A DNA stretch of 52,278 bases from contig JALAGF010001309.1 of NCBI GenBank assembly GCA_030167865.1, positions 62,001 to 114,278 of the forward strand, read 5' to 3'. Below the pieces are notes generated by a model. That model was not told the origin of the DNA, made no database searches, and saw only the letters and a list, made by a program, of their open reading frames with translations. This DNA comes from Craspedostauros australis. Its lineage: Eukaryota. The number at the start of each line of letters is the position of its first letter. Position 1 is the stretch's first letter. Both the position numbers and the translations under genes were made by a program. Positions 3,254-45,321 of the stretch are shown here, piece by piece.

Positions 3254-4585
3254 CCGTTTTCGCTCTGGCTTTCGCTATGCTGGCGCTGGTTGCGATGCTG
3301 ACGCTGCCTTTGCTGTTGTTGGGGGCTCTGTGTCGTTCGACTATCGCTCTCCTCTCGCTCCATTGCTCTGCCTGCTGCTCATTGGTAGTAGTATTGTACG
3401 TACACAATTATTGTTGGTTGTGAAATATCACAGAACGGAACAGAGACGGGTGATCCCTTCTGGATTGTTGGACGCGACAAGCAGCCGCTTTGTGGACGTT
3501 GAACCGCAACAGCTGTTGTGATGATCGCGAGACGGTGCGGATGGTGACTGTGCAGGGGTTCATGTGCTGCTCCGTTTGGCCTTGCACCGTATGCCAACAG
3601 CTGTGTTCGTTCTTGGGTTCCTGTTTTGACCGTTTGGTGGTGTCTGTTGTGTTTCCATGTTGTCAGTTTGTGGATGGATGTTTGCGACAATTTCATTTGG
3701 CTGTTTCGTTGTTGTCGTGTTGTACATACATACGGGACCATCCAACCTCACACAGACAAACAGAATCGACGGTTCCACTGTGCGTCATAACGAAGGCCAC
3801 GTCTGCATTCTTCAATGAGGTGGCCGGCCTAGTTCGCATGACCTTCTGCTGTGTCGTGTCGTCATCTGCAAGACCACGTGTTGTTTCCACGATTTCTGCG
3901 ACTCTGAATTAGGAGCACATACGCGTGTTGGTCTTGGGTTGCTTAGTTCGAAACACTGCGACACGATGACGTAACTCATCAACGCAACACGTGGAGAACT
4001 GCTGCCGCATCTGTCGAATCTCACTTATCGTCGACATGGAATTGTGACGAAGCACCATTCTTGTGTTCGTACGACTGCAATGAGAAACAGCATCATCGAT
4101 CCTCCGAACAGATGCGAACGGCGCAGTTGTTCACAATTCACGTGGTCTTGGCAACCAGGCCAACGCGACTGAGTTCGTTGGAGTGTAACGCCCAATCGCA
4201 GTAGACCAACGCAACAAGAGCAAATGCGCAAACGGCGCTGACGAAGAGACAGAATCACCGATCTATCCATCCCATCTGCGTCCACGTCGGCACACATCTG
4301 CGAAGTTGGACGCAATTCAACTTGCACCACAACAACGACGAATCGTACTTGTACGTTTGTGCTGTCTCCACACGATTACTGACAAAGGCTGATCGCAACA
4401 ACCCAACCACTCCAATGCCATAAAATCTCCAGAGTCCCAAACACACCTCACTTCCACACCCTCTCTCTTCTCTGCATCCATCTCATCTGTACACGGTATT
4501 CAAGCTGCTCCCAATCGACTCCTCTCGACCCAGCTGAACTGAACTGAACTTGTCTCGAATCAACGCCACCACCAAAGCAACAATC

Positions 4586-6700: not shown

Positions 6701-7497
6701 AGAGCGATGCGTTGCAGTCGAAGAGGCAGTTGTCGTCTTTTGCATTTCCTTGCGCATCATGCACTGAGGAATGATGCGATGCGATGCGATTGCAGTGAGC
6801 GCCGTTGTGCGATGATGGGGTGGAACGCAATGGAATACAGTGCAGTGCCGTGTATTGCATTGAAATGGAATGGAAATCAAAGTGGATTTCGAAGCGGTCT
6901 TCATTTTCAACCCAAGTCAATAAAGTTTGAAGCAACACTATTTGTACCATACCATCGTGACGCCACTTGCGCTCTGTAGATCAAGACTCAGTCTCATACT
7001 CTATGCTCCATGAACTGCTTTGGGAAATGTGAGATTGAGCAAGGAGAACAGAAGAATCGGAGCAGAGCAGAGCAGAGCAACAAGAAGGCGTTCCGCCTGC
7101 CGATCCCAGTTGGCCTCACCGCATTTCGCTTGCACAGTCTATCACTCGGGATTAGATGTAGGTACAACTCACGATCCAGACGAATGCGTGAATGACCCAA
7201 GCGTTGCCGAAAAGACTCCGATGGCTGCACAAAGTGGAAAGCAACCAAGTGTGCATGCAGATTCATCTTTGTGCAACTGAGGCCATCACCACCCTCTTCC
7301 TCACACAAATGGATGTTTGGATTGCATCATTGTTTGCATTGTTAGTCGCATGTTGGTCGGATCATCGCAGTCGTCGTCATCGGCATCTCGCAGAGCAGCA
7401 CTCGATTGAGAACACAGCACACGCAATTGCAGCAAACAAGATTGAACAAACACCAACGGCAGAAGCCAAAGCTCCATCCCGAATCTCATCCTCCCAC

Positions 7498-9571
7498 ATG
7501 ACGCAATCCGAGGCAACCTCAGCATCAGAAGCATCGACGACAGAAACACCCGCCAAGCGACGCAAGCTGGACGAACTTACCACAACAGCAGCAGCAGCAG
7601 CAACAGCGGCATCAGCAGCAGAAGTAACAACAACGATGAACTCCGAAGCGCACTACCAGCCACCATGCGTGATGAAGGGCAAGGCGACGTTTGACGCTGC
7701 CGAAGTGCAACGACTCGTGGAGAAGTACCCTCTGAGCGATAAGATCTCGCACTACGGCTACGGAACGGCGGGCTTCCGCTTCAAGGCCAACCTCATGGAA
7801 GGCCTCATGGTGCGCGTCGGCATCATCGCGGCCCTGCGCGCCTTTGGCGTCGACGGCGATGTCGGCGTCATGGTCACGGCCTCGCACAATGACGAATCTT
7901 ACAACGGAGTCAAGATGGCGGATCCGCACGGTGGCATGCTGGCCGCGGATTACGAGGCATTCGCGACGAAGCTGGTCAACGAACGCAATGTCACGCAGCT
8001 CTTGTCCACCCTGACCGACCAGATGGCCAAGCACGTCAACGGCGATGGCATTGTGCATATCGGACGGGACACGCGTTCCCATTCGCCGGCCTTGTCGGAG
8101 CTCGTCGTGCGCACGGCCCTCAGTATGGGTGCCACCGTCATGCATCATGGTATCATCACGACGCCCATCTTGCATCATTGTGTTCTGCATGCCAACGCGG
8201 CCGTGCATCTGCCAATCTACATCCCACCGCGTCCCAACACCAAAGGATATCTCGATCTGCTGGCGCATGCGTATTGGGGATTGATTCAAACGGCCACGCC
8301 GGCTGCAACACAACAACAACCGCTGGTCGTGGATTGCGCCTGCGGCGTGGGATACCCGCTGGTGTCGGCATTGCAGGAACGTATCCAGACCGTGTCGAAT
8401 GGCAAGGCGCGACCAATCCTGCCCACCAACAGTCCCGCCGATGGCCCATTGAATGACGGTTGCGGGTCTGAATTCGTGCAGAAGCAGGTGCAACCACCGA
8501 CGTGGTACAACGGCGACACCTTGCCCACTGATCGCACCTACTGCGCATCGTTGGATGGCGATTCGGATCGCATCGTCTTCTTTGCGCAAGATAACGACGG
8601 TGGTGCCTTCACCTTGCTGGATGGCGATAAGATTGCCGTCCTCATTTGTGCATTCCTGGAAGATCAGTTGAAGGTCCTGTATCAGATGGATTCCACTTTG
8701 CCCGCGTTGAGATTGGGCGTCGTGCAAACGGCCTACGCCAACGGTGCATCCACCAAGTATTTGAAGGTATGTACGGACCTGCATGTGTGTATGGACGCAT
8801 GTGTGACATTCTACCCTTTGTTGTGTATACCATACTGTGCGTGTCGGATTGGGAGAGCAAGAAATGCATAACTGACTCACCATCATCCCTTCTCCTCGAT
8901 GCTATTCCATCACATCCACACGCACATACGTACGTAAATACTGCACTACACTCCACCCATTCGCGCAGGCCAAGTTGGGCGCCGACAAGGTTCTCATTGC
9001 CAAGACCGGCGTCAAGCACGTCCATCACGCCGCAGTCGAGAATTTTGACATCGGCATTTACTTTGAGGCCAACGGTCATGGCACCGTCATTTTCGACGAG
9101 CAGACCTTCGGCAACCTCCTGCAGAAGTGTCCACCATCCGTCCGCGCCACACCAGAATGGCAACGCCTGCGACTGCTGCCTTCGTTGATCAACCCTGCCG
9201 TCGGCGACGCCCTCAGCGATCTGCTACTGGTCGATGCCATCCTCACGATCCGCGGTGGCTGGACCATCCAGAATCCGTGGAGCACGCTGTACCAGGACTT
9301 CCCAAGCCGTCAGCTCAAGGTGCCTGTGCCAAATCCCAAGCGCATCCAGACCAACTCCAACGAGACGCGGGCCTTGGCACCGGAGGGATTGCAGGATGAG
9401 CTGGATCTCCTCATGCAGCAAGGTGGCGGGCGTACCTTCGTGCGTCCTAGCGGGACGGAGGCCGTTGTGCGGGTCTATGCAGAGGCCACGACGCAAGCTG
9501 AAGCTGACAAGCTGGCCGCCGAAGCCGAAAAGCTCGTCGACAAGTACTGTGGCAACTACTCCAAACTGTAG
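7498..9571 (+). CDS. PGM3: Phosphoacetylglucosamine mutase; exons 7498-8766 and 8969-9571
   Basis: Motifs YGTAGFR, VMVTASHN, DCACGVG, SLDGDSDR, DGDKIA, VVQTAYANGAST, TGVKHVHH, IYFEANGHGT and RTFVRPSGTE. The phase-0 intron 8767-8968 (GTATGT...GCAG) joins YLK|AKLG in frame. Start uncertain (7498 or 7636). Confidence 0.95.
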
Positions 9572-9866: not shown

Positions 9867-12800
9867 CTAAAACCCGGCAAGCCGAAAGAGGGATGGCAGT
9901 ATGCCATCATCTGGGCGCTGTTCCGACGTTGCGCAGAAGACCAACAGATCATCGACTGCATCTGATGCACGGGAGAGATCATCCGAGATGACGGAGAATT
10001 GATTGTGCGCTTCGTCATCGTCGTCGTCATCGAAGTTATCCATCGCATATGGCGATTGGCGAATCGCAAGGGCCGTCGTTGTTCCGCGTCGCAAAGGATC
10101 ATCATCATGGCGCAATTCGCATTCGTAAAACTGTTCGGAATGTGGCTGCTGCTGCTGCTGCGGAAAGATGCTGTACGTGCTGTGCTTTTCGGTTGTGTGC
10201 TTGAGCCGTTCCGCCAATGTCGTGAGAGGCTTGCGACGCTTGCAGTCCACGCCAGCGTGGTCTGGAAGGAACCAATCGTACTTGGGAGTGTAGAACGAGT
10301 TGAACGAGTCGTCCGCACCACTGGTGTAGCTTCTATCCTGATCTCCCTCGTCGTCGCCATCATCCTCAGAGAGGAAGACGATCTCGATCTCAGATCGCGG
10401 CGATGATGATTGATCATGCGGCCCCCTGAGGTTGGAGGATGTCCATGTTCCCGATGCCTCTGATTGGTTGCGTGATGAAGCAAATCGTGCCTCCGTCAAC
10501 GGGTTGACTGTGCTCGCACGCGGATAGACTTGGTTGGATGGTGCTGAATTCGATGCGCCAGTGTCCACGAGGACGCCGGGGGACTCGTCTGGCGTGCCTG
10601 TGTGAATGAAGGGAACATCGTCAAGAAAATTCCCTGCGTACACATCACGGAGAGATCCATGTGCCGAGTTGAATTCGTCGTCGTCGTGGTTGCTGCTGGA
10701 CTCCTCCATGGTTGCGTGCATTCGGAGGTCATTGGATTCACTGGTAGGCGTTGCGCTGTGATCGCTGTGCCTGTGTGACGCGGACCCGAGGATCGTTTTG
10801 ACGTAGTCATCATCCATGCGCAGCAATTCATCGATGGAAGATCCTCCGTTGGATGACGAGGCGCTGCGTCCGCTGCTTCGATTGTTGTGCGGGGTGAGCA
10901 GGGATGACGTGTTGTCAAGATGCCGGTGCGTCTTCTGCAGCTTTCGGAGATGACCCCTGGGTCGGGTGTAGGATATGCCCAACTCGTGACCGTCGGGCGA
11001 GACGGACAATTGCGACTTCTCGAATGTGTCCGCCAACATCTCGGAGGTGGGATCGAAGACGATGATCCTTCCTACGATGTCCTGATCCTGCTCGGCGGCG
11101 TTGCGAAGTCGCTGCTTGCTGCTGCGCTGGCGCCTGCGTTCCCTTCCGTCCTCATCAGAGGACGACAGGGAATCGGCATCGTCATCATTGCCAGCTCTGC
11201 CCGGCGACTTTGGAAGTGCGTCGTTGGTGCGACCGATCGCCAATGTCTTGGAGTTGACGACGCTCTCTTTGGCCCCATCCTTGGTTTGGAGGATCTTGTC
11301 GGGGGAGCGCTCGTCCTCTTCTTCGTCGCTGGAGAGACCACTGGTGACACCAACGTTATCAACATCAACGTTATCAACAACATCAACGTTATCAACATCA
11401 TCAACGTCGTCATCTTGCATGGTCTGGATGGTGTCCAACTCGGGGTGTTGGATACCGATGACGCTGCTGAAGAAGAAGCTTTCATCCTGTGACGAGACAT
11501 CATCCGTGAACATGGCTGGCACATCCATGCGATCATGATTCTGCGTCCTGCGGTGTTTGGATGGATCGTTGAGCTGTGAGTGTTGATCTGCTGTGGTGTT
11601 GGCGGTCATGGCGCATGCGTTCTTGTCCAAGATGGTGCCGGTGATGTTGGCAGGCTGGACGTTTGGATTCTGGTTCTCGCCATCTGGTTGGAACTCGACG
11701 ATCCCGACCTCCGAATCATCATCCTGCATGTAATGTGCCACAATGACATCACGCCTTCGCTGTTCTTCCTCCTCCTTTTGTTGTCGTTGCTGCAGCTGCT
11801 GTGCTGTTGGAGATGGTTCCGAGTTCGATTCCATGTCCGTGGAGTGCTGGGGTTGATCCACAAGTTCGAGGAACTTCATTTGCGTCTTCTTTGTCTTCTG
11901 CTGCGTGACGGCGTCGGTGGCTTCCTTCGTCCTCCGTTTCTGGATGGACTTCTTGAACTTCTTGCGCAGCGAGTGCACCATCTTCTTCACGCCTCTTTTG
12001 CTGTTGTTGGCAGGGTTGATGTTTGCAGCGTCATGCTGTTGCTGGTGCTGCGGGCGAAGACGATGGAGGCGTGGTGTCGAAGGCGTTGATGTAGAAGTCG
12101 TTTGTTTGTGAGCGGTAGATTGCGGAACGGGTTTGACCTTGGATGTCGCGGGCGTTGGTGTCTGATCATTGGCGGGGTTTTCACGCTCGGTGTTGAAATT
12201 GATGCCAGCCGTGGCTACGGTTGCTGGTGTTGGCGGCGTTGCAGGTGGAGACGTCAATGTGGGTATGAGAACGGAACGATTTGGCTGCGACCGCGACTGC
12301 AGGAGTGGTTGCTGCGAGGAAGAGAAGGAGGACGGCGATGACGGTGGTGACGATGGAACCGGAAAGGAACCTTTTGGTCGCTTTCGGAAGATGGAATTGC
12401 CTTTGCCCCACCGCAACGTTGGGAAACGTCTCCCCACTTGCTGCTGCTGTTGCTGCCGTTGCCTCAGTTGATGCTTCTCGCGCTGATGGTGGTGATGATC
12501 ATGATGATGCTCCTGCCGCTTCTTCTGCTTGCGCTCGCGACGAACTTGCTTTCTGTGAGACCGAAAGTCCCTCTGTTGCTGTGATTGTGCGTACATATTG
12601 AAGTTGTAGGCCTGCGTTGTGAACGTTTGCGCGCCCGTCTCGGGAGAGTTGCTGCAATTGCTCGCGTCGCAAGTGGGCGATGGGTCGCTTGTGGTCGACG
12701 AGGCTGACGACGAAGCCGAAGATGATGACGACGACGAGGACGTCGCCGTGAGCGCGTGGAGAATTGCGCCTTCCGCACTGTTGGCGAGGATCGGAGCAAT

Positions 12801-12938
12801 GTCGTTCGTCTGTGTACGGGTATGTGTACGGGTATGTGTACGGGTATGTGTACGCGTCTTTGTACTCGTATGCTTTCCGGACAGCTGAGGCCAAATGTCT
12901 GCTGGTGGTGGAAGGTCTGCCTCTGGCTGGGTCTCCAT
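9867..12938 (-). CDS. Long low-complexity, probably disordered hypothetical protein (~1023 aa)
   Basis: 3.1 kb uninterrupted ORF with first ATG at 12938; poly-S/Q/H/D tracts and basic clusters; no recognisable domain. Confidence 0.75.
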   Translation of the reverse strand: METQPEADLPPPADIWPQLSGKHTSTKTRTHTRTHTRTHTRTQTNDIAPILANSAEGAILHALTATSSSSSSSSASSSASSTTSDPSPTCDASNCSNSPETGAQTFTTQAYNFNMYAQSQQQRDFRSHRKQVRRERKQKKRQEHHHDHHHHQREKHQLRQRQQQQQQVGRRFPTLRWGKGNSIFRKRPKGSFPVPSSPPSSPSSFSSSQQPLLQSRSQPNRSVLIPTLTSPPATPPTPATVATAGINFNTERENPANDQTPTPATSKVKPVPQSTAHKQTTSTSTPSTPRLHRLRPQHQQQHDAANINPANNSKRGVKKMVHSLRKKFKKSIQKRRTKEATDAVTQQKTKKTQMKFLELVDQPQHSTDMESNSEPSPTAQQLQQRQQKEEEEQRRRDVIVAHYMQDDDSEVGIVEFQPDGENQNPNVQPANITGTILDKNACAMTANTTADQHSQLNDPSKHRRTQNHDRMDVPAMFTDDVSSQDESFFFSSVIGIQHPELDTIQTMQDDDVDDVDNVDVVDNVDVDNVGVTSGLSSDEEEDERSPDKILQTKDGAKESVVNSKTLAIGRTNDALPKSPGRAGNDDDADSLSSSDEDGRERRRQRSSKQRLRNAAEQDQDIVGRIIVFDPTSEMLADTFEKSQLSVSPDGHELGISYTRPRGHLRKLQKTHRHLDNTSSLLTPHNNRSSGRSASSSNGGSSIDELLRMDDDYVKTILGSASHRHSDHSATPTSESNDLRMHATMEESSSNHDDDEFNSAHGSLRDVYAGNFLDDVPFIHTGTPDESPGVLVDTGASNSAPSNQVYPRASTVNPLTEARFASSRNQSEASGTWTSSNLRGPHDQSSSPRSEIEIVFLSEDDGDDEGDQDRSYTSGADDSFNSFYTPKYDWFLPDHAGVDCKRRKPLTTLAERLKHTTEKHSTYSIFPQQQQQPHSEQFYECELRHDDDPLRRGTTTALAIRQSPYAMDNFDDDDDDEAHNQFSVISDDLSRASDAVDDLLVFCATSEQRPDDGILPSLFRLAGF
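12811..12854. repeat. 12-bp tandem repeat (TGTGTACGGGTA) x3.7, encoding (THTR)n on the minus strand
   Basis: Read directly. Confidence 0.9.
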
Positions 12939-15900
12939 TATTTGATACTCTGGCCTGGTGTTGTCTCCAGACGTCGTGGTCACTCGCTGTGTTGCTGCTC
13001 TTGACACAGTTGTTGTTGTTGTTGTTGCTTGCGGTACTACGCGCTGTTGCTACCACGATTCCAACTCCAGCTCTGGCGTGTTGCGTGCTACGCTGCCGCT
13101 GTTGTTGTTGCTGGGAGGGTCGGGATGAAGTTCGGCGCCAGTCACAACAGCGGAGTGAAGCGTTTGAATCTGGCGTTTTTCTGGTTTTATGTGTGAAGCA
13201 CGACTTGTGTTGTGTTGGTGTGGCACTGCACCGTTCTGTCGCCAAATCGCCAACGATGAATGAGTAATGTGATGGATCCGTCTCTCTTGGGTTAGCTCGT
13301 GCTTTGCGAGTATGACGACGAGGGTACCAACGACAACGACAACGACACCACAGCACAGACGATGAAGATAGTGGTGGCAGTAGTGGTGGTGGTCGCTGTG
13401 ATGCTTCCCAATGAACTTTCAGTACTGCCGACTTCTCGAGGAGGTGCTAGTTGTGCCTACCTTTGTTGCGGTGGCCCAGGTCCTGAATGACCCTCTGCTG
13501 CGGCTGTTGGGGGACGAGGCTGAGAATCCTCCAACCCAACTGGAAGTCTGGCTCGACCCACGTGGAAGAGCGGACGCAAATGCGAGCCTGGTGCGCACCC
13601 AACCAGATTCAGCTTCGCCGTGAAACCCCAGTGATGCAAAGCAAGCAAGCACGCGCTGCCAACCAACCCACGACAAGCACGCACAGAGCTCTTTTGCACT
13701 GTGGATCGGGTTCTCAAAAGTGCGCCCGAGTGACGCGATTCTCCTTGGCGCGCGATGTTCGGCTTCGTGTTCAGTGGTCGGCAAACGCTGCAAGAGCAAG
13801 CGTCAACGATGGCAACGAGCAAACCGCTTCTCTGGCTTGGATCGCTCTTGGATTGTTTCGTTTCTCTTGGCTTTTCTTTGTCTTGTGTTGGTTTGTTGGA
13901 ACACAGCTGTTCTCTATCTTGTGGACTATTGGAGAGATCGATCGATGGCAGTGGTCGAATTGTGATGGATGAACAAATGAATGGATCAATGAATCAATGA
14001 GAATACGACAGTAATGGCAGCGTCGAGCAGCGTACTGGCGCGCGGTCGCATGAGAGAAACAGGAGAGGGCAGTGGATGGTTGAATGAGCGTTGTGTTGGG
14101 TATGAACACACCACACTCATCCGCGCGCTTCCACTTGAAGTTGCACTTGCGCTAAGATGGAGGATGCTCGTTGTGTTTTCTGTTCTTTGTCCCGCACACA
14201 CAAGGCATGCGTGGCGCGCACAAATACTCACTTGCTGTCCGTGTCTTGGTGGATTGGCTCTCTCGGGCAGTGTGGATGTCCGTGCACCACTCTCCGACTC
14301 CAACTCTTCGGCGCCCAGGATGCGAGCCTGTGACGCAAACACGGTCCAGAGAGAGGGATCCAATCAAGAAAAGGAGCTCCGGCCGAAATTGGAAACGGTG
14401 ACGCTCCCTCTCTTGCGCACGGTAGCGGCGACAGAATCTCCGTTTGCGAGACCGCCGAATCAAACTTTTGGCTTTCCGGGTTGCGCTTGCTCGGTTGTTT
14501 TGGTGTGTGTTTGTGTCTTTGTCCCTTGCCATCTCATGACGTTGTTCTCGTTCTGGGGTTTTGCGCACTTCGCAACCGTTGTGCCAGTACCTTCACTCCC
14601 TTCGTTGGAAGATCTCCTCTTCTGGAATCCCACAACAATTGCGAAACACATGAAGCAACCCGTGCAACAACCATCGCCCATCGCTTTCTCACTCGCAAAA
14701 CCTCTTCCATCCAAACAACACATCATCAACAACATCGACAGCATCGACAACATCGACACATCACAAAATAGTCCACTCCATCCAGACAACTTGCGCCACG
14801 GACGACAATTCACCTCACTGATCACTAATTTTGTCCACACCCTCGACAATCCATCGGCAATCGATTGGCCTAATAATTCCCACAATTTTGTTTCGACAGT
14901 TCCAACCCTCCGAACGTTATCAACAGTTAAAGATAACGGCAATTGGAATTGGGGACTCCCCATCGATTTGATTGGAATACATTTAGTCGATGTGATCGTA
15001 AGTCCGGTTGAATGTCGGACGTGCAATAACCATGACTCGGAGACATGATCCACAGTTAGAGTTTTTAGATCAAGCTAGACGGAACATGACACGATATTGA
15101 TTGCAACGAAGCAAGACGTTGCATGATGCGTTGCCAACGCAACAAGTTCGCATGTTAATGACCTTTGTTCTCCTGTATCTCAACATACGCATCAGCCACG
15201 AATACAAGCAGTCGAATGGACGTCTCAATCATTGATGGTCATTGGCGCGACAGAAGCACCACGATGCGTGCGGAGTGGTGCGATCGGAGAGTAAGTAAGC
15301 GTTGCTGCGCAGCTAATTGTGGAGTGTGGGCATTGAGTACGTACAGTAGTTGGTAACTGTGTTCCTTCTTCATCCACCGCTCCGCGAGTATCCTGCTCTG
15401 CACTTCCGTCTCCTCCGATGGAACTCTCTTGATTGAGGTGAGCACCGCCTCTGTTGCGAGTTTCAGTGATGATACGACAGCAGCTGCCACAAAATAGAAT
15501 TTCGAAGACTACTCTTTGCAAGACGTTGGATCGTGTTGGGGACATCACAAAGGACTGTCGCGATCCAAGAATGCCGTGAACGTTCGGTTGGAGGCAGGAG
15601 AGGCTCTGCCGCTCATTCAGTCAACTCTTCCTTCGAGCAATACTATGAGCATTGCCACCATTGATGTGTCGGATGTGGACCTATTAGGCGAAGAGACGAA
15701 GCTGCATTTCGACGTTTGAGGTTAAAACAGGCGGGATATCCGTTACTCGACCCTCACAATTGATAGAGCAATCGTACATCGCCAGCAGATTTGGCAGTTG
15801 CTCCAGAGATGCGGTCTCACCATCCACAGTATCCATCTCTTGTTTGTCAAGCGCCCTCTTCTGCTTGTCTCGATTCTAATCACAGGCTTCTCTTTGTTCT

Positions 15901-16774
15901 CACCTTCCAGTATGGTAGTATTAGTAGAGTAGATGGCATGGACGTCCCATCCTGTTCCATGCTCATCCTATCTTCCCACAAAAGACAGATACAGGAGTCG
16001 ACAAACCCGTCCAATCGGCGCACCAGCAATGCGTTCTCATGAGCGCAGAGTACCCTCTGTCTGTTGTCACTGAGTTGGCCGTCCCTGCTTGTTTCTCCTC
16101 TTTTCGTTCCCGTCACACGACGATGCATTCTTGGTGCTAATCCGCGAAAGACGCCCGCCCCGCTTGCAGTTCGTTCACAGGAACGACCCAAAATCAAAGC
16201 CCCATAAGTGAAATGGATGTTTCGTGCGGGATGAAAAATTTGACCGTCGCGAAGTTCTGGTTGCACTTGGTAAATCTGGACGCTTTACACATGAATGTGA
16301 CGGATGGAGGACGTCGTGTTGGTGGCACAGTTGGTAACTCGAAAACGTAGCACATGGACATGCATCGGTTGGTATACGCGTTCCAATCTTGTGAAATGAT
16401 AGAATTTTGGCGCCGCCATTTCACAATTTGGTGCGCATTTGTGATGTTCCCAACAAAATCGTGATAGTGCAAGGTGTCTGTGCCCAACACCAAAGACAGA
16501 CGCAACCACAGAGTGGCGACAATCGCAACACAAAGGAGAGAGAATGCATCCGAACCGCATCCACCCGCACAAACGATTGTTCATAAAGACAGCACCAAGA
16601 AGCAGAACATCAGTGGACATCTACCATCGTTGCTACTCGCCACAAAACAAAAGCCAGCATCAGGCACAGCAAGCGTACTCGAAGCCAAGAGGGATCATCA
16701 TCACAGCAGTGGCTCCACCCCAGGTCATTCCCGAATTGGACCACACACATCGTTCTCCTGTAGTTGCATCCGAC

Positions 16775-16832
16775 AACAAGAATAGCAACAAGAATAGCAA
16801 TAGCAAGAATAGCAATAGCAAGGATAGCAAGA
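16775..16832. repeat. Imperfect AAGAATAGC/AATAGC tandem repeat immediately upstream of ATG 16838
   Basis: Read directly. Confidence 0.8.
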
Positions 16833-16837
16833 AGACA

Positions 16838-19800
16838 ATGCCGTCCTTCGCATCATCGTCCGCACTGCTCGGGTGCCTGATGGCATCCCTCACACTGAGC
16901 AGCATGCTGCGAACGACGGCCGCGCAGGACGTCAGCGCCATCCGCGTGCTCTCCAGCAGCACGGGCTCCACCAACAAGATCGAATCGCTGTTCGAGATCG
17001 AATACACCAGCGCCTTCGACACCCCCGTTGGAATCGCCAAGGCCGTCAGGGCGCTCGTGGACTCGTACAACGACCTCGTGGAGGACGAATTCGCCAACCC
17101 CTTCCAGGCGGAGATGGATGAGATGGATCTTCTGCAGGTCTTCGATGGCAACCGGCGGCTGCTGCAGGTCAGCGATGCCCTCAAGGAGCCGGATCATTCG
17201 CACCGCGCCTTGCAGACGTCCTCGGAGCCGCACGTCTACAAAGTGCGGGCCATGGGAGTTGGCACCTGCTCTGGCTGCGATTCGCTCTTCCAATTCACCA
17301 GCGACGACATGGACGACCTCCCAACGGAAGACGAGCTCCTCGAGGCTTACGCCGATGATGTCGAAGACCTGCACCTCGGTATCAGCGTCACCGATCTGGA
17401 GGAACACCCAGACTCCAGCGGCGGCAAGGGCAAAGGAAAGGGATCCAAGGGCGGTTCCAACGGCTCTGGCGGCAACAACGGCAACAACGGCAAGCACGGC
17501 AAGTCCCTTTCCTGCACTCCGGAGCGAAACGCCAACGACGGGTTCTCCTCCTTCTTCTTCAACCTCTTCACCAACGAACTGGCCGTCGCGCTGGGTGTCG
17601 AGGTCGCAGGAAAGGCGCTGGCTCAGGCCTACAATGAGCTCGTTCAGGAGTACGAGAATCCCTTCCAAGCCAGGATGGACGAATCCGCGATCGTCGACGA
17701 GAGCGGTCGCCGCCTGACGGACGAGGACCTCAGACGCAACCTCCAGCAGCTGCCAACCTTCACAGCCTTCTCCATCGGAATTGGATCCTGCTTCAGCTGC
17801 GGTAGCTCGTTCCGCTTCACCAACGACATCACTTTCCAGCGAGAGCTCAAGTCCAACAAGAGTGACAAGAGCGATAAGAGCGACAAGAGCACCAGCTACA
17901 GCTCACCGTCATCTCCCAGCCGAAACAGCAAGAGCGACAAGAACGGCAAGAACGGCAAGAGCTCGAAAACCAGCAAGGAATGCCCTGAGCTCCTCCCAGG
18001 CTTGCCAACTGAGGAAGAGCTCCGAGTCGCCTACGACCGCGTTCTCGTGGAGATTGCGGCGGACCAATTCGATGCCATTCTGGTGCTGGAGGAGCTTGAC
18101 GCAGTAAGTAAACTTTGTGCGCAACATGTGTCGTTGTGGCGTTGATGTGCGGTTAAGATTCCGCAAACACTTGGGCCGATGTTGGAAAGAGTGTCCATTC
18201 TCCTCTATGCTCTGGTTTGATGAGCGAACCATGGGTTGCTGTCATGCCCGAATGCCAAGCCGCAAGCCTTGTCACCAACACTCACTCTTTTCATCTTTCA
18301 CCCCCATTGCGTCACGTACTTGTTTCACCGCGGGCCACACCAACACACCGTATACACGCGCTCTTCATTACGCACACCGTCCATCCCACAGCTTCCAACC
18401 TCCCACCCAACGTTTGCGCCAACCAAGTCGACCAAAGCGCCCAAGGGCGGAGGACCCAACGGCCCGTCCGAGCCATCCATGCCATCTGGGCCATCCATGC
18501 CGTCCGGTCCATCTGGGCCATCCGGTCCATCCATGCCGTCCGGTCCATCTGGGCCATCCGGTCCATCCATGCCGTCTGGTCCATCTTCGCCAGGAAAGGG
18601 AAAGGGCAAGGGCACCAAGTCTGGACCAACAACGCCCTCCGGTCCGTCGGGCCCATCGGGTCCGTCTGGTCCATCCGGCCCATCACACCCCACTGGCCCA
18701 TCGATGACGGCTGCCCCGTCTGGCCCGTCTGGTCCATCGCACCCCACCGGCCCATCGATGACGGCCACTCCATCTGGTCCATCCGGTCCATCCGGCCCAT
18801 CCTCGCCAGGAAAGGGCACCAAATCCGGACCAACAACTCCGTCCGGTCCATCCGGTCCATCCGGCCCATCCTCGCCAGGAAAGGGCACCAAATCCGGACC
18901 AGCAACTCCGTCCGGTCCATCCGGTCCATCCGGCCCGTCTTCGTCAGGAAAGGGCACCAAATCCGGACCAGCAACCCCAACTGGCAAGGGCAACAAGTCT
19001 GACTCTTCCGGCAAGGGTGCTAAATCTGATTCCTCTGGGAAGGGAGACAAGTCTGATTCTTCTGGAAAGGGCACGAAGGTGGCACCACCAAAGGAATATC
19101 CCCTCATCCGCAGCGACAAGTCATCGAAGGATTCCAAGAGCTCCGGGAAGGGTAAGGGAACCAACAAGAAAAAGAGCGACAAGAGTGGCTCACCCGCGCC
19201 ATCCACGAAGAGCGGCGGCAAGAGCGCCAAATCGGAACCTTCAGGTCCATCTGGTACACCGTCTGGTGAGGGCAAAGGCAAGGGCGCAAAGGTTGCATCC
19301 TCCAAGGACTACCCGCTGATCCGCGACGACGAAGGCAAGGGTAAGGGCAAAGGTAACAAGTCAGGCCCCAGCGCACCAGCCGGGCCGTCCGGACCAACCA
19401 AGAGCAACAAATCTGAACCGTCTGGACCTTCAGGCCCATCGATGCCGTCAGGTCCTTCAGCCCCTGGCGGGCCACCAACACCATCTGGTCCTTCAGCTCC
19501 AGCCGGACCAAGCAAGAGCAACAAGTCTGGACCGTCCGGCCCGTCTGGACCCTCAGGCCCATCGATGCCGTCAGGTCCTTCAGCCCCTGGCGGACCACCA
19601 ACACCATCAGGTCCTTCAGCTCCAGCCGGACCATCAGGCCCATCGATGCCAGCTGGACCAAGCAAGAGCAACAAGTCTGGACCCTCTGGACCATCCGGCC
19701 CGTCTGGTCCATCCATGCCGGCAGGACCATCTCATCCATCGGGTCCATCTCAACCATCAGGCCCATCTCAGCCATCAGGTCCATCTCAGCCATCGGGTCC

Positions 19801-20140
19801 ATCCCACCCATCGGGTCCATCTCAACCATCGGGTCCATCTCAACCATCGGGTCCATCCCACCCATCAGGTCCATCTCAACCATCGGGTCCATCGATGCCA
19901 TCAAACCCATCTGGCCCATCAATGCCATCTGGACCAAGCCCCAAGGGTCCATCTCACCCATCGGGTCCATCCCAACCTTCTAGTCCTACAGGGCCATCGC
20001 AACCAGCGGGCCCATCCGGCCCATCAGCCCCGGGCAAGGGCGCCAAGGCATCGTCGGGCAGGGACTACCCGCTGATCCGTGAAAGCGACGAATCAAAGAG
20101 CACCAAGGATAGCTCACGCCGTCGTGTGCGTTTGGCTTAG
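16838..20140 (+). CDS. Secreted silaffin-like/collagen-like extracellular protein, ~1004 aa; exons 16838-18103 and 18392-20140
   Basis: Signal peptide MPSFASSSALLGCLMASLTLSSMLRTTAA; RXL motifs (RVL, RRL, RAL, RNL, REL); KXXK blocks; (GPS)n tracts. The phase-0 intron 18104-18391 (GTAAGT...CACAG) joins ELDA|LPTSHPT in frame and links two ORF-track entries. Confidence 0.85.
18460..20035 (+). repeat. Coding tandem repeats: Gly-Pro-Ser triplets, PSGPS[MHQ] hexapeptides, KSDSSGKG and PGKGTKSGP units
   Basis: Read directly from the DNA and the translation; synonymous variation between units. Confidence 0.95.
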
Positions 20141-27471: not shown

Positions 27472-28207
27472 GGCGCTTTTGAGTTACAGTACGATGTATA
27501 GAGTGGTGGCTGTTGGTGAAATATGGAGAGTATGATACAATAGTCGATTATGTTGCAGTATTACTCTTGATCATGTGGATGAGAAACAGTTGAAACGTTG
27601 GCCTTTTCGTCATTTGGGCATGAGTGTTGTTGGTTAGTTGATGTGTTGATGCGTTGATGTGATGTTTGTGAGGTGTGCGGGTTTGGATCGGTTCTGCCAT
27701 TTTCGGATTTTCTTGAATCATTGTTTGAATTGTCATCTAGTCGATGTGGTCGGAGACATTTGTCAGACATCTTGTACTCCAACGAGTCGACGATGTACTT
27801 TCGCCGACTTTTTATATTGTATTAAACCTTGAATAAAACGTATATAAATCCCCGCGATAAGTAACTCGCGTCTTCCATGTCGCAGAAAGAGTCCTTGAGC
27901 GACGCGGCGCGAGAGCCGGGGATTGCTCGCCATCTCATCGGATGTCACATCAAAAATGAGCCCACACCAGATCGCAACACATCGCGATCGCCGTCGGCAC
28001 CGGCAGACCACCTGCGCACACGCACAACTCAACCCCATTCGCCAACTTGTGCAGGCTTGTCACTTTCGGCATTTCACCATCATCCTCGCCATCGACGCCA
28101 TCATCAAACATCAAGCATCAAGCATCAAACATCAAACATCAACACAAGCTCCGCGGGACATTGCGTTCATTCATCTGCAAATACAACCACCTCCCCAAAA
28201 GCTCACC

Positions 28208-31200
28208 ATGAAGGCATGGAAGTTCAGACGGCAGCAGCTACAGCGCCGTCGTTCTGGAAAAGACACGAAAGAACTGGAGACGAATGTTGCCGGCAACAAG
28301 AAGATCATCTCAAAGCGGAAGCAGCAGCAGCAGCAGCAGCAGCAGCAAACGTACTACAGCAACGGAGATAGCGTCGACAGCGGAGAGGCCCGTTCTGATT
28401 CCGGTCGGACGAGGCGAGAGAATGATGTTGCTGGTGACAACCAGCGACGTGCACCCAACGACGATCCACTGCACTCACCTTATGGAATGAATGGGCGATC
28501 TCAGCACGCCATCAATGCTTCCAATTCACCAGTGCGCCACAGGCTGCAGCACTTCCCAACTCCGAACAATCAATCTCCTTATGCTGGCGCTCCCCACCAC
28601 CCGCACGACAATGGCTGGTACGGTTACGCGCCTGGTCCAGCGTACGGGTATGAACATAGCCAGGATTATGTGGATGGGCGCTCGACACCACGCAACAAGC
28701 GATCTCCCCGAACGCAGCACTACGATCGAGCATATCACTCCGGCCACGGTACCACCAATCCTTCAACAGGGTACGAGCACAATGGCCACCGCTATCATGA
28801 GTACAATCATCCACGCCACCAACAGTATCAGCATCCGCAACAACAACAATCGCAGAGCGGGGGTGGTATTTTCTACGATACGGCCGATGTGGGTCCATAC
28901 GGCGGTCCCTCCACGACGTACGGCAACCATGCACCGTCATATCCACACACTGGACACGTCCAAGATCGGGTGCAGCAACTGCAACGACATGCGTCTCCAA
29001 TACCATCGCGCGATCCAAGGATGGTGATGGAGGCAGGCGGGTATGGGTACGCATCCTTTGAGTACCATCAGCCTCAACATACTGGTGCGTATGGTGACAG
29101 AACGCTTGGCCAACCTTCGTATTACATGCAGCAAGGACTGCGGCACAGCAACCATTACACATTTCAACAACAACAACAACAACGTGGCGGTGGTGGTGGT
29201 GGTGGTGCTCCTCCTCCCAGCATGAACTACCAGGATGACAATGGCGATGAAGATGTCAGCAATAGCAACAGCGCCAGTCACAGTGCCAGCGCCGGTGCGA
29301 GCGTCAGTGTGAGCGGTAACGGCAGTGCCAGTGGCAACACCAGCTCACAACTTTCCGTCATTTATGACGAACGCGAAGATTCCTGGACCCGCGACGATCA
29401 TCCCAGCAGCAGATCATCCTCGAAGGTATCCCACAGGGAGTGGGTTGATGGCAAAGCGGATGGTTCATCCGCCGCCTCGTCAACAGCATCCTCTCTGCAA
29501 CGCAGGCAACGGCGCTACATGAGTCAATTCACACATCCATCAACAACAAACAACGGCGAACGCCTGGAAATGGGCGTGACGCGCATGGGAACCATGTCGT
29601 CCACCCCCACAGCAGTCAAGTCGGCTTCGGTGAAATCGTCATCATCCACGAAGGGCGGTGGCGAGAATAGCACGTCGCAGGAAAGCAGCGTGAATGGAAA
29701 GACGAGCAAAAGCGCCAAGAGCAAGGGCGGCAGCGTGGGGAGCAAGACTGGGAAAACCAGTGTGACCAATTCCTTATCCGAACATCCTCACACTCGCGTG
29801 AGCGATGACGCCTACTGTCTTTCGATTGCATCCGGGAAAACGACGCTATCTTCTCGATCATCACCCTTCAAGAAACATCGCAATCCATCCTCAATAACAG
29901 CCTCCGGCTCCATGGCGTCGTCGTTGTCATCCAACTCTGGCACGAAGAGTTCCGTCAAATCGTCCCCCTCCAACCAACACCATCAGGCCTCTTCCGGCTC
30001 CAGCACCGTAAATGGTGGCAGCAAGAAGAGCACGAAGTCCGCAAAATCTCGAAACTCAGCGAACAGGTTCGTGCGGGATGGCGAAAACGCATCGCAAGCA
30101 TCCAGGGGATCTTCTTCTTCTTCGACGTCGCAGTCCAGAGCTTCCAAGTTCGGCCTGAACTTCCGCCGCATGGCCAGGCTTCCAGAAAACCGAGAGATGA
30201 TGGAGGAGGAGGAGGAGGAGGAGGAGGAAAGCGTTGGTACGGAATCGCTCGGCAAGTACAAGCAAGCAACAACAGCGCCGGAACAGGCCGCGGAAGACCT
30301 GGTGCGTTCGCTGGAGGCCATGGGGTACGGTAGGGACAAGAACGGGGAACTTGACCTGCAAAATAGCGTATCCGATGCGCTGAGCATATCAGAACGATAC
30401 AAAAGGGACGGGGAGGACGCATCTGAGGGACACCGCAGCAGCTCCTCGCGATCGAGCAAGCGCAGGAATGGACTCAATGCAACATCATTCTCGTCGCAGC
30501 AGTCGTCGAAGCCTGGCACCGGCAGCATACGATCAACAGCACGGCGGATACAACGATACGGTGTGCCCACGCTACATGAAGCCATCGTGACGGAGGAGGT
30601 CGACGGAGATGAGGGGGCTGAGCTGCGGCTGATCGAACCTAGCACGATGGATGGTGGTGTCATCCCGAATCAAAACGCGCGTCGCCAAATCAGTATCAAC
30701 AACGGCAATAATATGAGGGCTGCCGTTGCAGGGAATGGTCATGGGAACATCATCACCGGCCTTGAACAGATGGCATTGCATGCCGCTGATGGTGCTTCGT
30801 CAAAGGAAAACACCTACTTCGACGAATCCACAATCTCCACCAAACTCACGGCCGAGATTAACCGCAAGAACCTGGATTGGAAGCGACAGGAGCGGTTGTA
30901 CCAAGAGGAAGGATCGTTGCACGTTGATACCACCAACCTGATCCTGCAGAACATTCAGGAGCAGCTGCATTCACCTGGCGCAGCATCGCCCACCACAATG
31001 TCAACGCAACGGATGGCGAACGGTGCGAGACGGAACCAATTCGACGCCAACGGGAACCTCGCGAACGAAGCGAGTTATATGTTAAATGCACAACAGCACC
31101 AGCGATTGCGACAACCACCGAAAGCGGTGCCTGCATCAACCAGCTTGGTTGGGAATGCGATGAACCGCCTCTTTGGTGTCATCGAATCACCGCCATCCGA

Positions 31201-31726
31201 AACAGGAAAGAGCGCCAACAGCATCCTTGAGCAGCAGCAGCAGCAGCAGCAGCAGGTGATGACAACCGCCCCAGCACAATCATCAGAAGTGGGAATGCCG
31301 ATTGCATCTGAAGCATCCCCAAACGGAGGCGTCGTGATCGCTTCTCCTCCGAACAACAACAACATCACAACTACGACCACGACAACAATCAGCCCCTCGC
31401 CTTCCGCCGGTTTGGGCGGAACACCAGGCAGCAACGCCAACATGACACCCAACGGTGCCAACAGCAACAACGAGAAGAGGGTGGACTTCGGCGGTGAGAT
31501 CCCCCCAAGTGCCATCTACGGCAACGACATGAAGTCCATCATCTCCGACATCTCCTTGTCGATCCCACCCACGACCATGATGTCGACGGAACCCATGCCA
31601 GGAATCATCACAGAAAACGGATGCTCGAGATGGATGGATCAAGTGCTGTTGTCATGTCGTTTGGCATTCCAACCGACACAGGCAGCAGTGGCGGCATCAT
31701 CGTCGTCTCTGCCACAAAAGTTGTAA
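28208..31726 (+). CDS. Long low-complexity hypothetical protein, 1172 aa
   Basis: Uninterrupted ORF from ATG 28208; Y/G/H/Q-rich N-terminal third, S/K-rich middle, poly-E and poly-Q tracts; no recognisable domain. Confidence 0.8.
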   Translation: MKAWKFRRQQLQRRRSGKDTKELETNVAGNKKIISKRKQQQQQQQQQTYYSNGDSVDSGEARSDSGRTRRENDVAGDNQRRAPNDDPLHSPYGMNGRSQHAINASNSPVRHRLQHFPTPNNQSPYAGAPHHPHDNGWYGYAPGPAYGYEHSQDYVDGRSTPRNKRSPRTQHYDRAYHSGHGTTNPSTGYEHNGHRYHEYNHPRHQQYQHPQQQQSQSGGGIFYDTADVGPYGGPSTTYGNHAPSYPHTGHVQDRVQQLQRHASPIPSRDPRMVMEAGGYGYASFEYHQPQHTGAYGDRTLGQPSYYMQQGLRHSNHYTFQQQQQQRGGGGGGGAPPPSMNYQDDNGDEDVSNSNSASHSASAGASVSVSGNGSASGNTSSQLSVIYDEREDSWTRDDHPSSRSSSKVSHREWVDGKADGSSAASSTASSLQRRQRRYMSQFTHPSTTNNGERLEMGVTRMGTMSSTPTAVKSASVKSSSSTKGGGENSTSQESSVNGKTSKSAKSKGGSVGSKTGKTSVTNSLSEHPHTRVSDDAYCLSIASGKTTLSSRSSPFKKHRNPSSITASGSMASSLSSNSGTKSSVKSSPSNQHHQASSGSSTVNGGSKKSTKSAKSRNSANRFVRDGENASQASRGSSSSSTSQSRASKFGLNFRRMARLPENREMMEEEEEEEEESVGTESLGKYKQATTAPEQAAEDLVRSLEAMGYGRDKNGELDLQNSVSDALSISERYKRDGEDASEGHRSSSSRSSKRRNGLNATSFSSQQSSKPGTGSIRSTARRIQRYGVPTLHEAIVTEEVDGDEGAELRLIEPSTMDGGVIPNQNARRQISINNGNNMRAAVAGNGHGNIITGLEQMALHAADGASSKENTYFDESTISTKLTAEINRKNLDWKRQERLYQEEGSLHVDTTNLILQNIQEQLHSPGAASPTTMSTQRMANGARRNQFDANGNLANEASYMLNAQQHQRLRQPPKAVPASTSLVGNAMNRLFGVIESPPSETGKSANSILEQQQQQQQQVMTTAPAQSSEVGMPIASEASPNGGVVIASPPNNNNITTTTTTTISPSPSAGLGGTPGSNANMTPNGANSNNEKRVDFGGEIPPSAIYGNDMKSIISDISLSIPPTTMMSTEPMPGIITENGCSRWMDQVLLSCRLAFQPTQAAVAASSSSLPQKL

Positions 31727-44517: not shown

Positions 44518-45321
44518 TTCTTCTCTGTGTGGAGTGGTACTATATCCCCTTGCGGAGAGTCGATCAAAGTGGATTTTTGGATCGGTTATTGCAGCTCCTC
44601 TCTTGCAGTCGACGGTAACGATGATGACGAGGATGATGATGGTGTGTTGTGATGGACTGATTGTGTTCGTGTTGTTGTCTGCTGATGTTTGGCGTTGCGC
44701 TTTGGTGCGTTGTCGTGCGTTGTGGTGCGTTGGTGGGAGCTTGATTTGGTTTGGTTTGCGTCAGCGAATGGCGCCTTTTGTCCGTCCGTTGTAACGGAAA
44801 ATAACGGCCATCTGGCCAGCGATTAGGAGATGTGCGTTCCAAATTCGACATGGAGAGATGGCGAAGTGTCATGAAGGCTATCCTAATTGTAGGTAGAATA
44901 GGCACGAATGGTACGAATAGGGTGGTACGAAGGCAGGTAGATGGAAGGATGGAGTGCGAGCGAGAGAGTGCGTTGCCCATGCTTACATTCGAGCAGCCCT
45001 GTTCTCGAGTGGCCAAGCCAAACAGTGAATATAGGCGTTGCGCTCTCGTGGAGAAACAAACCTCTCTCCAGAGAGGGAGGGCTGTTGATAACTGCGAGAA
45101 CGCAGGTAGAGAGCAGAGCAGGGAAGAGCATTCGAGTGTAAGGTTTCACATCGATCGCGAAGACAGCGACTGTGCAAGCGTCCAAAACAGGGTCCAATGG
45201 GGGGTAGGCTCGATTGGTTTGCATGCAGCACTGCCACAATCTCCGCATTCCTGATCCCATTCTCGTCGCATTGTTCCTGCAATCACAGTCCTGTCCACAG
45301 CGCTGCATTGGTCTCTCTCTG

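Follow-up and report, generated by a model that had tools for sequence, protein, structure and literature searches.

A candidate silaffin-like, mucin-like diatom protein on a conserved domain family with a predicted fold, absent from Pfam and from the literature searched

We have analysed a 52,278-nucleotide (nt) stretch of DNA from the diatom Craspedostauros australis (contig JALAGF010001309.1; here ‘the window’, to which all coordinates refer), and describe a locus on its forward strand that we read, with a probability of roughly 0.55, as one two-exon nuclear gene for a secreted, modular, silaffin-like and mucin-like surface protein. The proposed order of parts is a signal peptide, a propeptide site of the Arg-X-Leu (RXL) type, two domains that each bear a CxxC motif, and a 582-residue basic tail (Table 1). 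The sequence features listed in a preliminary description of this locus, namely a hydrophobic N-terminus, two CxxC motifs, KxxK motifs, Gly-Pro-Ser (GPS) tripeptides, a terminal RRRVRLA and a phase-0 interval, are all present at 16838–20140.

The conceptual product has 1004 residues and a mass of about 97 kDa; it is rich in Ser (20%), Pro (15%), Gly (14%) and Lys (7.5%), and contains 32 KxxK motifs, 65 GPS tripeptides, the two CxxC motifs and eight non-overlapping R-x-L sites (nine with an overlapping RRL/RLL pair), every one of which lies in exon 1; among them are those at residues 36–38, 106–108, 123–125, 291–293, 300–302 and 335–337. All 19-residue Kyte-Doolittle windows score 1.41 or less, and no membrane span is seen.

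Both exons are coding. Exon 1 is recognised as a real coding gene from its family matches (best E 1.4e-57; see below) together with a G+C content at third codon positions (GC3) of 0.80, the other genes of the window having 0.60–0.74 and the intron a flat 0.55. Exon 2 is odd in composition, with a second-position value (GC2) of 0.79 and a GC3 of 0.51; 24 distinct 9-mers, drawing on both Ser codon families, encode its 65 GPS tripeptides, and all 20 tandem-repeat rows found by TRF within the coding sequence have a period divisible by 3 and are mostly free of indels. These two observations show that, in this reading frame, it is the peptide of exon 2 that is under constraint. Long open reading frames (ORFs) on the opposite strand and in other frames are an expected by-product of the exon 2 repeats. 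Directly upstream of the start codon sits an AAT/AGC-rich microsatellite (16774–16830; 12- and 15-nt units, three to four copies) within an upstream ORF in the same frame, which opens at 16544; it is probably 5′ untranslated region.

Table 1. Features of the proposed gene, in window coordinates, with residue numbers of the conceptual product
Feature	Position	Strand	Remarks
Whole proposed gene, ATG to TAG	16838..20140	+	Two exons, 1004 codons
Exon 1	16838..18103	+	1266 nt, 422 codons; ATG at 16838
Putative signal peptide, residues 1–29	16838..16924	+	Hydropathy and alignment; cleavage probably after ..TTAA
First R-x-L site, RVL, residues 36–38	16943..16951	+	Propeptide-like position, directly behind the putative signal peptide
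CxxC domain copy A, residues 47–190	16976..17407	+	No low-complexity insert; model and alignment A1
CxxC motif 1, C144–C147	17267..17278	+	End of strand 3 in the model; invariant in A1 and A2
Gly/Lys/Asn-rich linker, residues 191–230	17408..17527	+	Includes Cys226, conserved in type-B copies
CxxC domain copy B, residues 231–422	17528..18103	+	Predicted fold as copy A, split by an insert
CxxC motif 2, C318–C321	17789..17800	+	Sequence and alignment A2
Lys/Ser/Asp-rich insert in copy B, residues 338–382	17849..17983	+	Directly after REL; two pentalysine clusters
Proposed phase-0 intron	18104..18391	+	288 nt, GTAAGT...CCCACAG; three in-frame stops
Exon 2	18392..20140	+	582 codons and TAG (20138–20140), in the frame of exon 1
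YPLIR motif 1, residues 658–662	19097..19111	+	Motif scan
Lys-rich block, residues 665–690	19118..19195	+	Five overlapping pentalysine windows; motif scan
YPLIR motif 2, residues 729–733	19310..19324	+	Motif scan
Longest uninterrupted (x-P-[STA]) run, residues 852–938	19679..19939	+	29 triplets; TRF arrays of period 18 and 36
YPLIR motif 3, residues 981–985	20066..20080	+	Motif scan
Basic C-terminal end RRRVRLA and TAG	20117..20140	+	Sequence

The N-terminal half of the product belongs to a family of proteins that can be followed by alignment. A phmmer search with exon 1 gave 24 matches at E<=1e-3 among 1,835,955,588 cluster representatives, the best of which, P0004 (E 1.4e-57), is the sole relative with a source name, Nitzschia sp. 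Nitz4, from a raphid pennate genus. Throughout, ‘relatives’ refers to 25 proteins (P0003–P0027), A1 to an alignment of single domains, and A2 to an alignment of seven two-domain proteins including that of the window; in A2 the two-domain relatives P0005–P0009 and P0014 align end to end with exon 1 at 32–36% identity. At the N-terminus, residues 8–20 form the most hydrophobic segment (11-residue Kyte-Doolittle mean 2.12) and small residues precede Q30, and the relatives begin with the same kind of hydrophobic segment, ending ..AAQ or ..SAQ, with RHL, RKL, RQL or RSL at the position of the first R-x-L site. The stretch that follows, residues 30–190, is acidic (net charge -25).

Copies A and B share 33% identity (E 2e-14), and copy B is the best-matching stretch in the family hits. 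The family unit spans about 145–190 residues in the relatives and is marked, in order, by F-x-S-[FY]-F, A-x-x-L-x-x-x-Y-N-x-L, [ND]-P-F-x-x-x-M, G-R-R-L, R-x-L-Q and G-x-C-x-x-C, followed by F-[ST]-x-[QD], R-R-x-L, a variable insert, L-P-T-E-E-E-L-x-x-x-Y and L-x-E-[VIL]; both window copies carry, in sequence, the core set F-x-S-[FY]-F, Y-N, N/D-P-F, R-R-L, R-x-L-Q, G-x-C-x-x-C, L-P-T-E-E-E-L-x-x-x-Y and L-x-E-[VIL], in the β-α-β-β-α-β order of predicted elements described below. The family profile matches the CxxC-bearing N-half at E 8.5e-27 and 2.1e-33 (the profile includes the window's own copies), and no further copy of the domain was found elsewhere in the window. Invariant in A1 are R79/L81, C100/C103, Y33/N34, P118 and Y127. 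Second, or ‘type-B’, copies possess two extra conserved Cys, present in all seven aligned proteins (A2, by reading): C226 before strand 1, and C383, which precedes the L-P-T-E-E-E helix by five or six residues.

Other searches add little to this picture. Pfam gave no family for either exon at E<=1. A word-based homologue search found, at near lengths, one weak match (P0003) and, at longer lengths, P0004 only; a search with the A1 profile had no match among proteins of 724–2065 residues, a range that misses most family members. Atlas searches with the window protein P0001 gave best scores of 0.81 and 0.75, below the level called usable, and that with the window protein P0002 no usable match; the 0.75 cluster, a lead only, is labelled a hypothetical protein of Eukaryota with Bacillariophyta the commonest taxon, the phylum being known for a single member. 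Literature searches (NifU, CXXC, SEA/ferredoxin-like and motif strings; supplementary tables aside) found no description of the family, and the CXXC proteins pTF.CatCh1/ISIP2b (PMC7972479) are a different, Cys-rich family; in the silica-proteome preprint 10.1101/2021.09.18.460806 the terms sought occur nowhere but in the references. Judged by sequence comparison, a diatom-restricted domain family without a Pfam entry appears the best explanation.

An AlphaFold model of copy A, made with 14 single-domain relatives (A1), has a mean predicted local distance difference test (pLDDT) score of 88.1 and a predicted template modelling (pTM) score of 0.79, and suggests that the CxxC domain is a ferredoxin-like β-α-β-β-α-β sandwich: strand 2–14, helix 22–40, strand 48–59, strand 88–100, helix 120–133 and strand 138–145, with the CxxC motif at the end of strand 3. 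Two of its connections stand out. That between strands 2 and 3 (60–87) is modelled with poor order (pLDDT 53–55) and bears RRL/RLL and the invariant R79-x-L81, here RAL, while the loop at 101–119 is the insert site, at which relatives carry inserts of 21–255 residues. In a model of the whole of exon 1 (seven sequences) copy B repeats the element order of copy A; the mean pLDDT of this model is 58, for which reason it was excluded and the fold search run with copy A, and its pLDDT falls below 50 at the linker (192–234) and the insert (339–387). The best fold match was the extracellular region of zebrafish Gpr126 (6v55_A; E 1.9e-3, TMq 0.41, the matched part of the chain being unspecified), with generic ferredoxin-like domains only below it; when the PDB was searched by sequence, neither A1 nor P0004 gave a match below E 0.03.

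R-x-L motifs and Lys-rich stretches fall at set places on this domain. We surveyed 39 domain copies, two from the window and 37 from relatives: within the 45 residues ahead of the CxxC, 36 of them have one or more R-x-L and 27 have two or more, and an R-x-[LIM] follows the CxxC within 30 residues in 35 of the 39, mostly at an offset of 12–14. This post-CxxC site is typically succeeded in the family by Lys/Ser/Gly-rich sequence of the S-S-K-S or G-K-G-K-G type. Copy A of the window has neither the insert nor the post-CxxC R-x-L site; in copy B, REL at offset 13 leads into 45 residues rich in Lys, Ser and Asp, among which pentalysine windows are located at 338, 365 and 368. In P0016, P0026 and P0027 the intradomain insert, of up to 255 residues, is rich in Pro, Thr and Ser instead (in P0016 matching the PT repeat PF04886 at E 6.8e-6), and the same loop therefore seems to host either kind of low-complexity sequence. 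Over the whole product there are eight pentalysine windows in three places (338–351, 365–381 and 665–690), a pentalysine cluster being defined as at least 5 K in 12–14 residues (PMC5501833). RXL sites border Lys-rich peptides at the copy B insert, as in 35 of the 39 family copies, and are absent in exon 2.

These marks are those of silaffins and silaffin-like proteins. RXL is regarded as the motif by which a diatom endopeptidase generally recognises its substrates, setting free the peptides of silaffins, frustulins, cingulins and silacidins; it follows the signal sequence in Sil1p, and KxxK clusters are where Lys is modified (PMC4557024); pentalysine clusters direct silaffins to silica, and KxxK proteins, TpSIL1 among them, often carry PT repeats as well (PMC5501833). 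With Sil1p of C. fusiformis and TpSIL1/2/3 the window protein shares a putative signal for the endoplasmic reticulum (ER), RXL sites after that signal and, at the copy B insert, next to a Lys/Ser-rich stretch, KxxK motifs and pentalysine clusters, and also Pro-rich repeats, which TpSIL1 and 14 silaffin-like/KXXK proteins are reported to have (PMC5501833, PMC4557024). It differs in three respects: silaffins are described as low-complexity precursors without a conserved fold, whereas the Lys-rich stretches of exon 1 appear as the linker between, and a loop within, conserved folded domains; the X of KxxK is here often Asp or Asn, not only Ser or Gly; and the long tail is devoid of RXL. The likeness is one of sequence, silica association, polyamine-bearing Lys and phosphorylated Ser being known for the silaffins themselves. 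A cingulin was considered and rejected, the 1004 residues having no Trp and 11 Tyr (1.1%), as against the alternation of KxxK with Trp/Tyr-rich regions reported for cingulins (PMC4557024).

The 582-residue tail encoded by exon 2 is basic (53 Lys, net charge +40, isoelectric point (pI) 10.35) and consists of Ser (25%), Pro (23%), Gly (19%) and Thr (5%), so that Pro, Thr, Ser and Gly (PTSG) make up 72.5%. Tracts of (x-Pro-Ser)n alternate with Lys blocks of the G-K-G-x-K-S and K-S-N-K-S type; 13 runs of at least four (x-P-[STA]) triplets cover 318 residues, and over 106 triplets the x position holds Gly 68 times, Met 10, Gln 8, Thr 6, His 6, Ala 4, Glu 2, Asn 1 and Ser 1. All Tyr residues of the tail are held by three [KR][DE]YPLIR motifs. 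A looser [DEST]-Y-P-[LTAVI] motif occurs eight times in five of the 25 relatives, where shuffled sequences give 1.1 +/- 1.1 (maximum 6 of 500), and is enriched in the linkers of P0003, P0004, P0007, P0011 and P0019.

That the two exons are joined is probable, judging from comparison with relatives and from sequence signals, and a short isoform may exist beside the spliced form. Among 49 frame-preserving GT..AG pairs, which use nine distinct GT donors, the donor at 18104 is the sole GTAAGT and the acceptor at 18391 the sole CAG preceded by a pyrimidine-rich stretch, the 3′ end of the interval reading CCGTCCATCCCACAG. Exon 1 ends ...LEELDA, two residues past the last strand (L-x-E-x) of copy B, exactly where the relatives P0015, P0016 and P0026 terminate. 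The start of exon 2, LPTSHPTFAPTKSTKAP, precedes its first ATG; its first 17 residues align with the post-domain linker of P0008 and, read by eye, are similar to the x-L-P-[TA] linkers in P0011 and P0012. The exon 2 ORF offers no start that carries a signal peptide of its own, and the basic C-terminus seen in nine of the 25 relatives (at least three K/R in the last eight residues) has its window equivalent only at the end of exon 2. The window also holds a second, independent phase-0 intron at 8767–8968 on the forward strand (202 nt, GTATGT...GCGCAG), which gives an independent example of the intron style in this genome. It splits a phosphoacetylglucosamine mutase gene (7192–9568, forward strand), the AMG1_III profile running on across it over two ORFs (profile positions 1–54, then 51–138).

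Synthesising these observations, we propose that the protein would enter the ER, lose a short propeptide at RVL (36–38), and be modified at its Lys clusters and Ser residues as silaffins are; Pro of the tail would be hydroxylated and its Pro/Ser O-glycosylated, as in diatom wall and mucilage proteins rich in Pro, Thr and Ser (PTS). An RXL endoprotease would then cleave exposed loops, and the product would be deposited in the cell wall (as part of the silica-associated organic matrix) or in an extracellular coat, where an acidic head (pI 4.55 for residues 30–422) and a basic, glycosylated tail may confer a zwitterionic character suited to binding silica or polysaccharide. The single, spliced, secreted and modular gene of the preliminary description is to this extent supported, the splicing by comparison with relatives; the silaffin-type marks it named (signal-peptide-like N-terminus, RXL and KxxK) were all found, as were pentalysine clusters, and the proteolytic processing that it proposed looks plausible given the R-x-[LIM] site behind the CxxC in most family copies. 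Its view of the architecture as unrecognised stands for the two-domain N-terminal module, a conserved family without a Pfam entry, and does not stand for the union of Lys blocks with Pro-rich repeats, which is not new and has been reported for KxxK proteins including TpSIL1 (PMC5501833). What appears undescribed, within the literature searched and supplementary tables aside, is the placement of Lys blocks in the loops of a conserved fold.

As to destination, we favour the wall and its silica-associated organic matrix over mucilage or an adhesive role, because the combination of Lys clusters and RXL sites is characteristic of silica-associated proteins; on composition, the tail would suit either role. 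The same gene model could nonetheless encode a glycoprotein of mucilage, adhesive strands or extracellular polymeric substances (EPS), with the glycosylated (x-Pro-Ser)n tail as the functional part, an extended tether, and the Lys blocks binding acidic polysaccharide; we regard this as possible, and as the less likely of the two. The tail is close in composition to the crude adhesive material of C. australis, for which a PTSG content of 69% is reported, with Ser at 22%, Gly 18%, Thr 12% and dihydroxyproline 17% (10.1101/2023.03.06.531300); diatoms have been connected with glycofibrils that have P[ST]xx repeats as their core (PMC11725842); and the sole named relative comes from a raphid pennate genus. 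The trail and mucin-like proteins CaTrailin4, Ca5609 and CaFAP1 likewise combine a signal peptide with disordered Pro/Ser/Gly-rich repeats and high PTSG content (10.1101/2023.03.06.531300), and O-glycosylation is to be expected of their repeats and of the tail alike. However, Pfam finds none of the trail-protein domains (CAA/PF20597, GDPH, vWA) in either exon, and the window protein also differs in having no Cys-rich repeat domains, Thr at only 5% of the tail, Lys-rich blocks within it, and a tail length of 582 residues rather than thousands; KxxK motifs, pentalysine blocks and RXL are, moreover, marks reported for silica-associated proteins (PMC5501833, PMC4557024).

Several observations weigh against our preferred reading of a single secreted, silaffin-like product. 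Its putative signal peptide is assigned from hydropathy and alignment only; no PDB entry matched the predicted fold at E<=1e-3; one named match and one Atlas cluster are what define the family's taxonomic range; and exon 2 contains no R-x-L at all, so that the tail would not be cut into peptides in the silaffin way. The remainder bear on the junction of the exons. Codon pattern differs between the two (GC3 0.51 in exon 2 versus 0.80 in exon 1); a comparably long Pro-Ser tail occurs in none of the 25 relatives, most of which stop soon after the second domain; and in eight relatives x-Val-Ser/Cys follows the last strand, with a stop within 8 to about 40 residues. Six of these eight were captured computationally (P0005, P0006, P0007, P0010, P0014 and P0017, ending 8–25 residues past that strand), and P0009 and P0020, with the same kind of ending, by eye. 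The window's own read-through of exon 1 also starts with Val-Ser and continues for 13 more residues to a stop at 18143–18145; were the Val-Ser tails genuine C-termini, this read-through end would be the homologous one.

On such grounds the locus might instead yield two products or a short isoform: a 435-residue two-domain protein like most relatives, ending at the read-through stop, with the Pro-Ser ORF either a separate gene that starts at the ATG at 18479 or present only in an alternatively spliced long form. We judge this unlikely. Val-Ser is the exact phase-0 translation of a GTRAGY donor, and because nothing past it is conserved between the relatives that have it, we read it as the translated form of a conserved donor and those database proteins as probable read-through or truncated predictions. 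The Pro-Ser ORF is, in addition, open for 85 codons upstream of the ATG at 18479, over a stretch that resembles the relatives' post-domain linkers, and the basic end typical of complete relatives exists only at the close of exon 2. A product begun at that ATG would be without a signal peptide, and a separate cytosolic Pro-Ser protein is rejected.

We find it very unlikely that the CxxC domains are metal- or Fe-S-binding modules of the Nfu/NifU kind, or redox-active ones, and the protein not a structural one. The CxxC motif is invariant in A1 and A2, and the NifU profile PF01106 matches weakly around G-x-C-x-x-C in four of eight relatives scanned, scoring 44 bits summed over repeats in P0004 and 17–25 bits in P0011, P0016 and P0018. 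Against this, the window protein has no NifU match at E<=1 and no single stretch of P0004 passes the cut-off alone; Nfu structures appear neither in the PDB sequence searches with A1 or P0004 nor among the fold matches listed (49 of at least 500); the N-terminal signal and RXL sites set the domains in a secretory context; and the two additional conserved Cys of type-B copies suggest disulfides. Membership of the NifU family is rejected, the matches being weak and local with none above the curated cut-off.

Least probable of all is that the GPS tracts form a collagen-like triple helix, or a trimeric glycofibril of tripeptide repeats like TLP-3, for although they keep a strict period of 3 with Ser at every third place for up to 29 triplets, no Pfam Collagen (PF01391) match was found at E<=1, Gly-X-Y runs reach 6, 5, 4 and 4 triplets at the longest in the whole protein and no more than five in the tail, 38 of the 106 triplets have Met, Gln, His, Thr, Ala or some other residue where Gly is required, and Lys blocks break the tracts every 4–29 triplets. 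The collagen half of the silaffin–collagen hybrid put forward in the preliminary description does not hold: the periodic unit is x-Pro-Ser, and by its sequence the tail is a PTS/mucin-like tract that has in common with collagen its short (Gly-Pro-Ser)n stretches. A literature search with GPSGPS returned collagen peptides, MSP1 and other unrelated items, with no diatom work among the matches listed.

The tail also resembles glycofibrils with linear short-repeat cores, namely the P[ST]xx repeats of TLP-4 and the tripeptides of TLP-3, in that its Pro-Ser dipeptide recurs at short, regular intervals along extended runs. Repeats of the TLP-4 kind are reported in diatom proteins, with glycosylated dihydroxyproline and Ser/Thr (PMC11725842); TLP-3 is described as trimeric, with O-glycosylated Ser/Thr at every third place and no known sequence (10.1101/2025.09.30.679562). 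Unlike TLP-4, the window repeat has a period of 3, not 4, and its runs extend to 29 triplets at most and are broken by Lys blocks. That the x-Pro-Ser tracts represent the missing sequence class behind TLP-3 is an idea we retain at low probability, because they are short and interrupted.

Elsewhere in the window, a 5′-open ORF at 2–1573 (forward strand) has a weak match to S-adenosylmethionine decarboxylase (PF02675; E 5e-4, 20.7 bits with a cut-off of 25), about 15 kb upstream of the silaffin-like gene and too weak to name the ORF; polyamine synthesis bears on Lys modification in silaffins. On the reverse strand lie an ORF with two ShK-like domains (43744–44760) and two glycosyltransferase-like ORFs (1886–3274, GT61; 47793–49664, Glyco_trans_1_2). 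Two long Ser-rich ORFs, at 9870–13049 (reverse strand, 1060 codons) and 27899–31723 (forward strand, 1275 codons), are without a Pfam match.

Returning to the CxxC domain of the preferred two-exon gene, we speculate, as an outside chance, that it may act as a diatom-specific ‘cut-and-hold’ module, analogous to the SEA domain of mucins, Notch-2 and Gpr126. This idea draws on the loop positions of the motifs, the type-B Cys pair and the weak SEA-like fold match. The RXL endoprotease would cut in the strand 2–strand 3 loop and at the fixed site 12–14 residues after the CxxC; the Lys-rich insert would be freed or exposed as a silaffin-type peptide, much like an excised C-peptide, and the halves of the fold would stay together, tied also, in type-B copies, by the two extra conserved Cys. 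Precedent comes from the SEA domain of Gpr126, a ferredoxin-like sandwich cut in its strand 2–strand 3 loop with the halves remaining associated, SEA domains being cut by autoproteolysis or by furin (PMC6954182). The predicted fold and a protease-site-bearing loop between strands 2 and 3 would be common to both; however, Pfam gives no SEA profile match at E<=1, P0001 has no GSVVV motif, and the match to 6v55_A lies above E 1e-3 with the domain matched unspecified. We know of no SEA counterpart to the CxxC motif or to the second insert site, from strand 3 to helix 2, and treat the likeness as analogy, not homology. If true, silaffin-like peptides would for the first time have a folded precursor scaffold, in the shape of this family, and in the present gene that scaffold would tether a glycosylated (x-Pro-Ser)n fibre to the wall.

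Silaffin-like proteins have been found by composition, without conserved sequence, and are hence hard to trace between species; here, Lys-rich, RXL-bounded stretches occupy fixed positions on a conserved domain predicted with confidence to fold. Should the protein be merely another secreted low-complexity protein, its description would amount to ordinary annotation. If the domain is a real processing scaffold, it would allow such precursors to be found and compared by sequence across diatoms, offer a defined substrate to study the RXL protease, which to our knowledge has yet to be identified, and connect silica-associated Lys peptides, in a way open to testing, with the Pro/Ser-rich glycoprotein of walls and mucilage.

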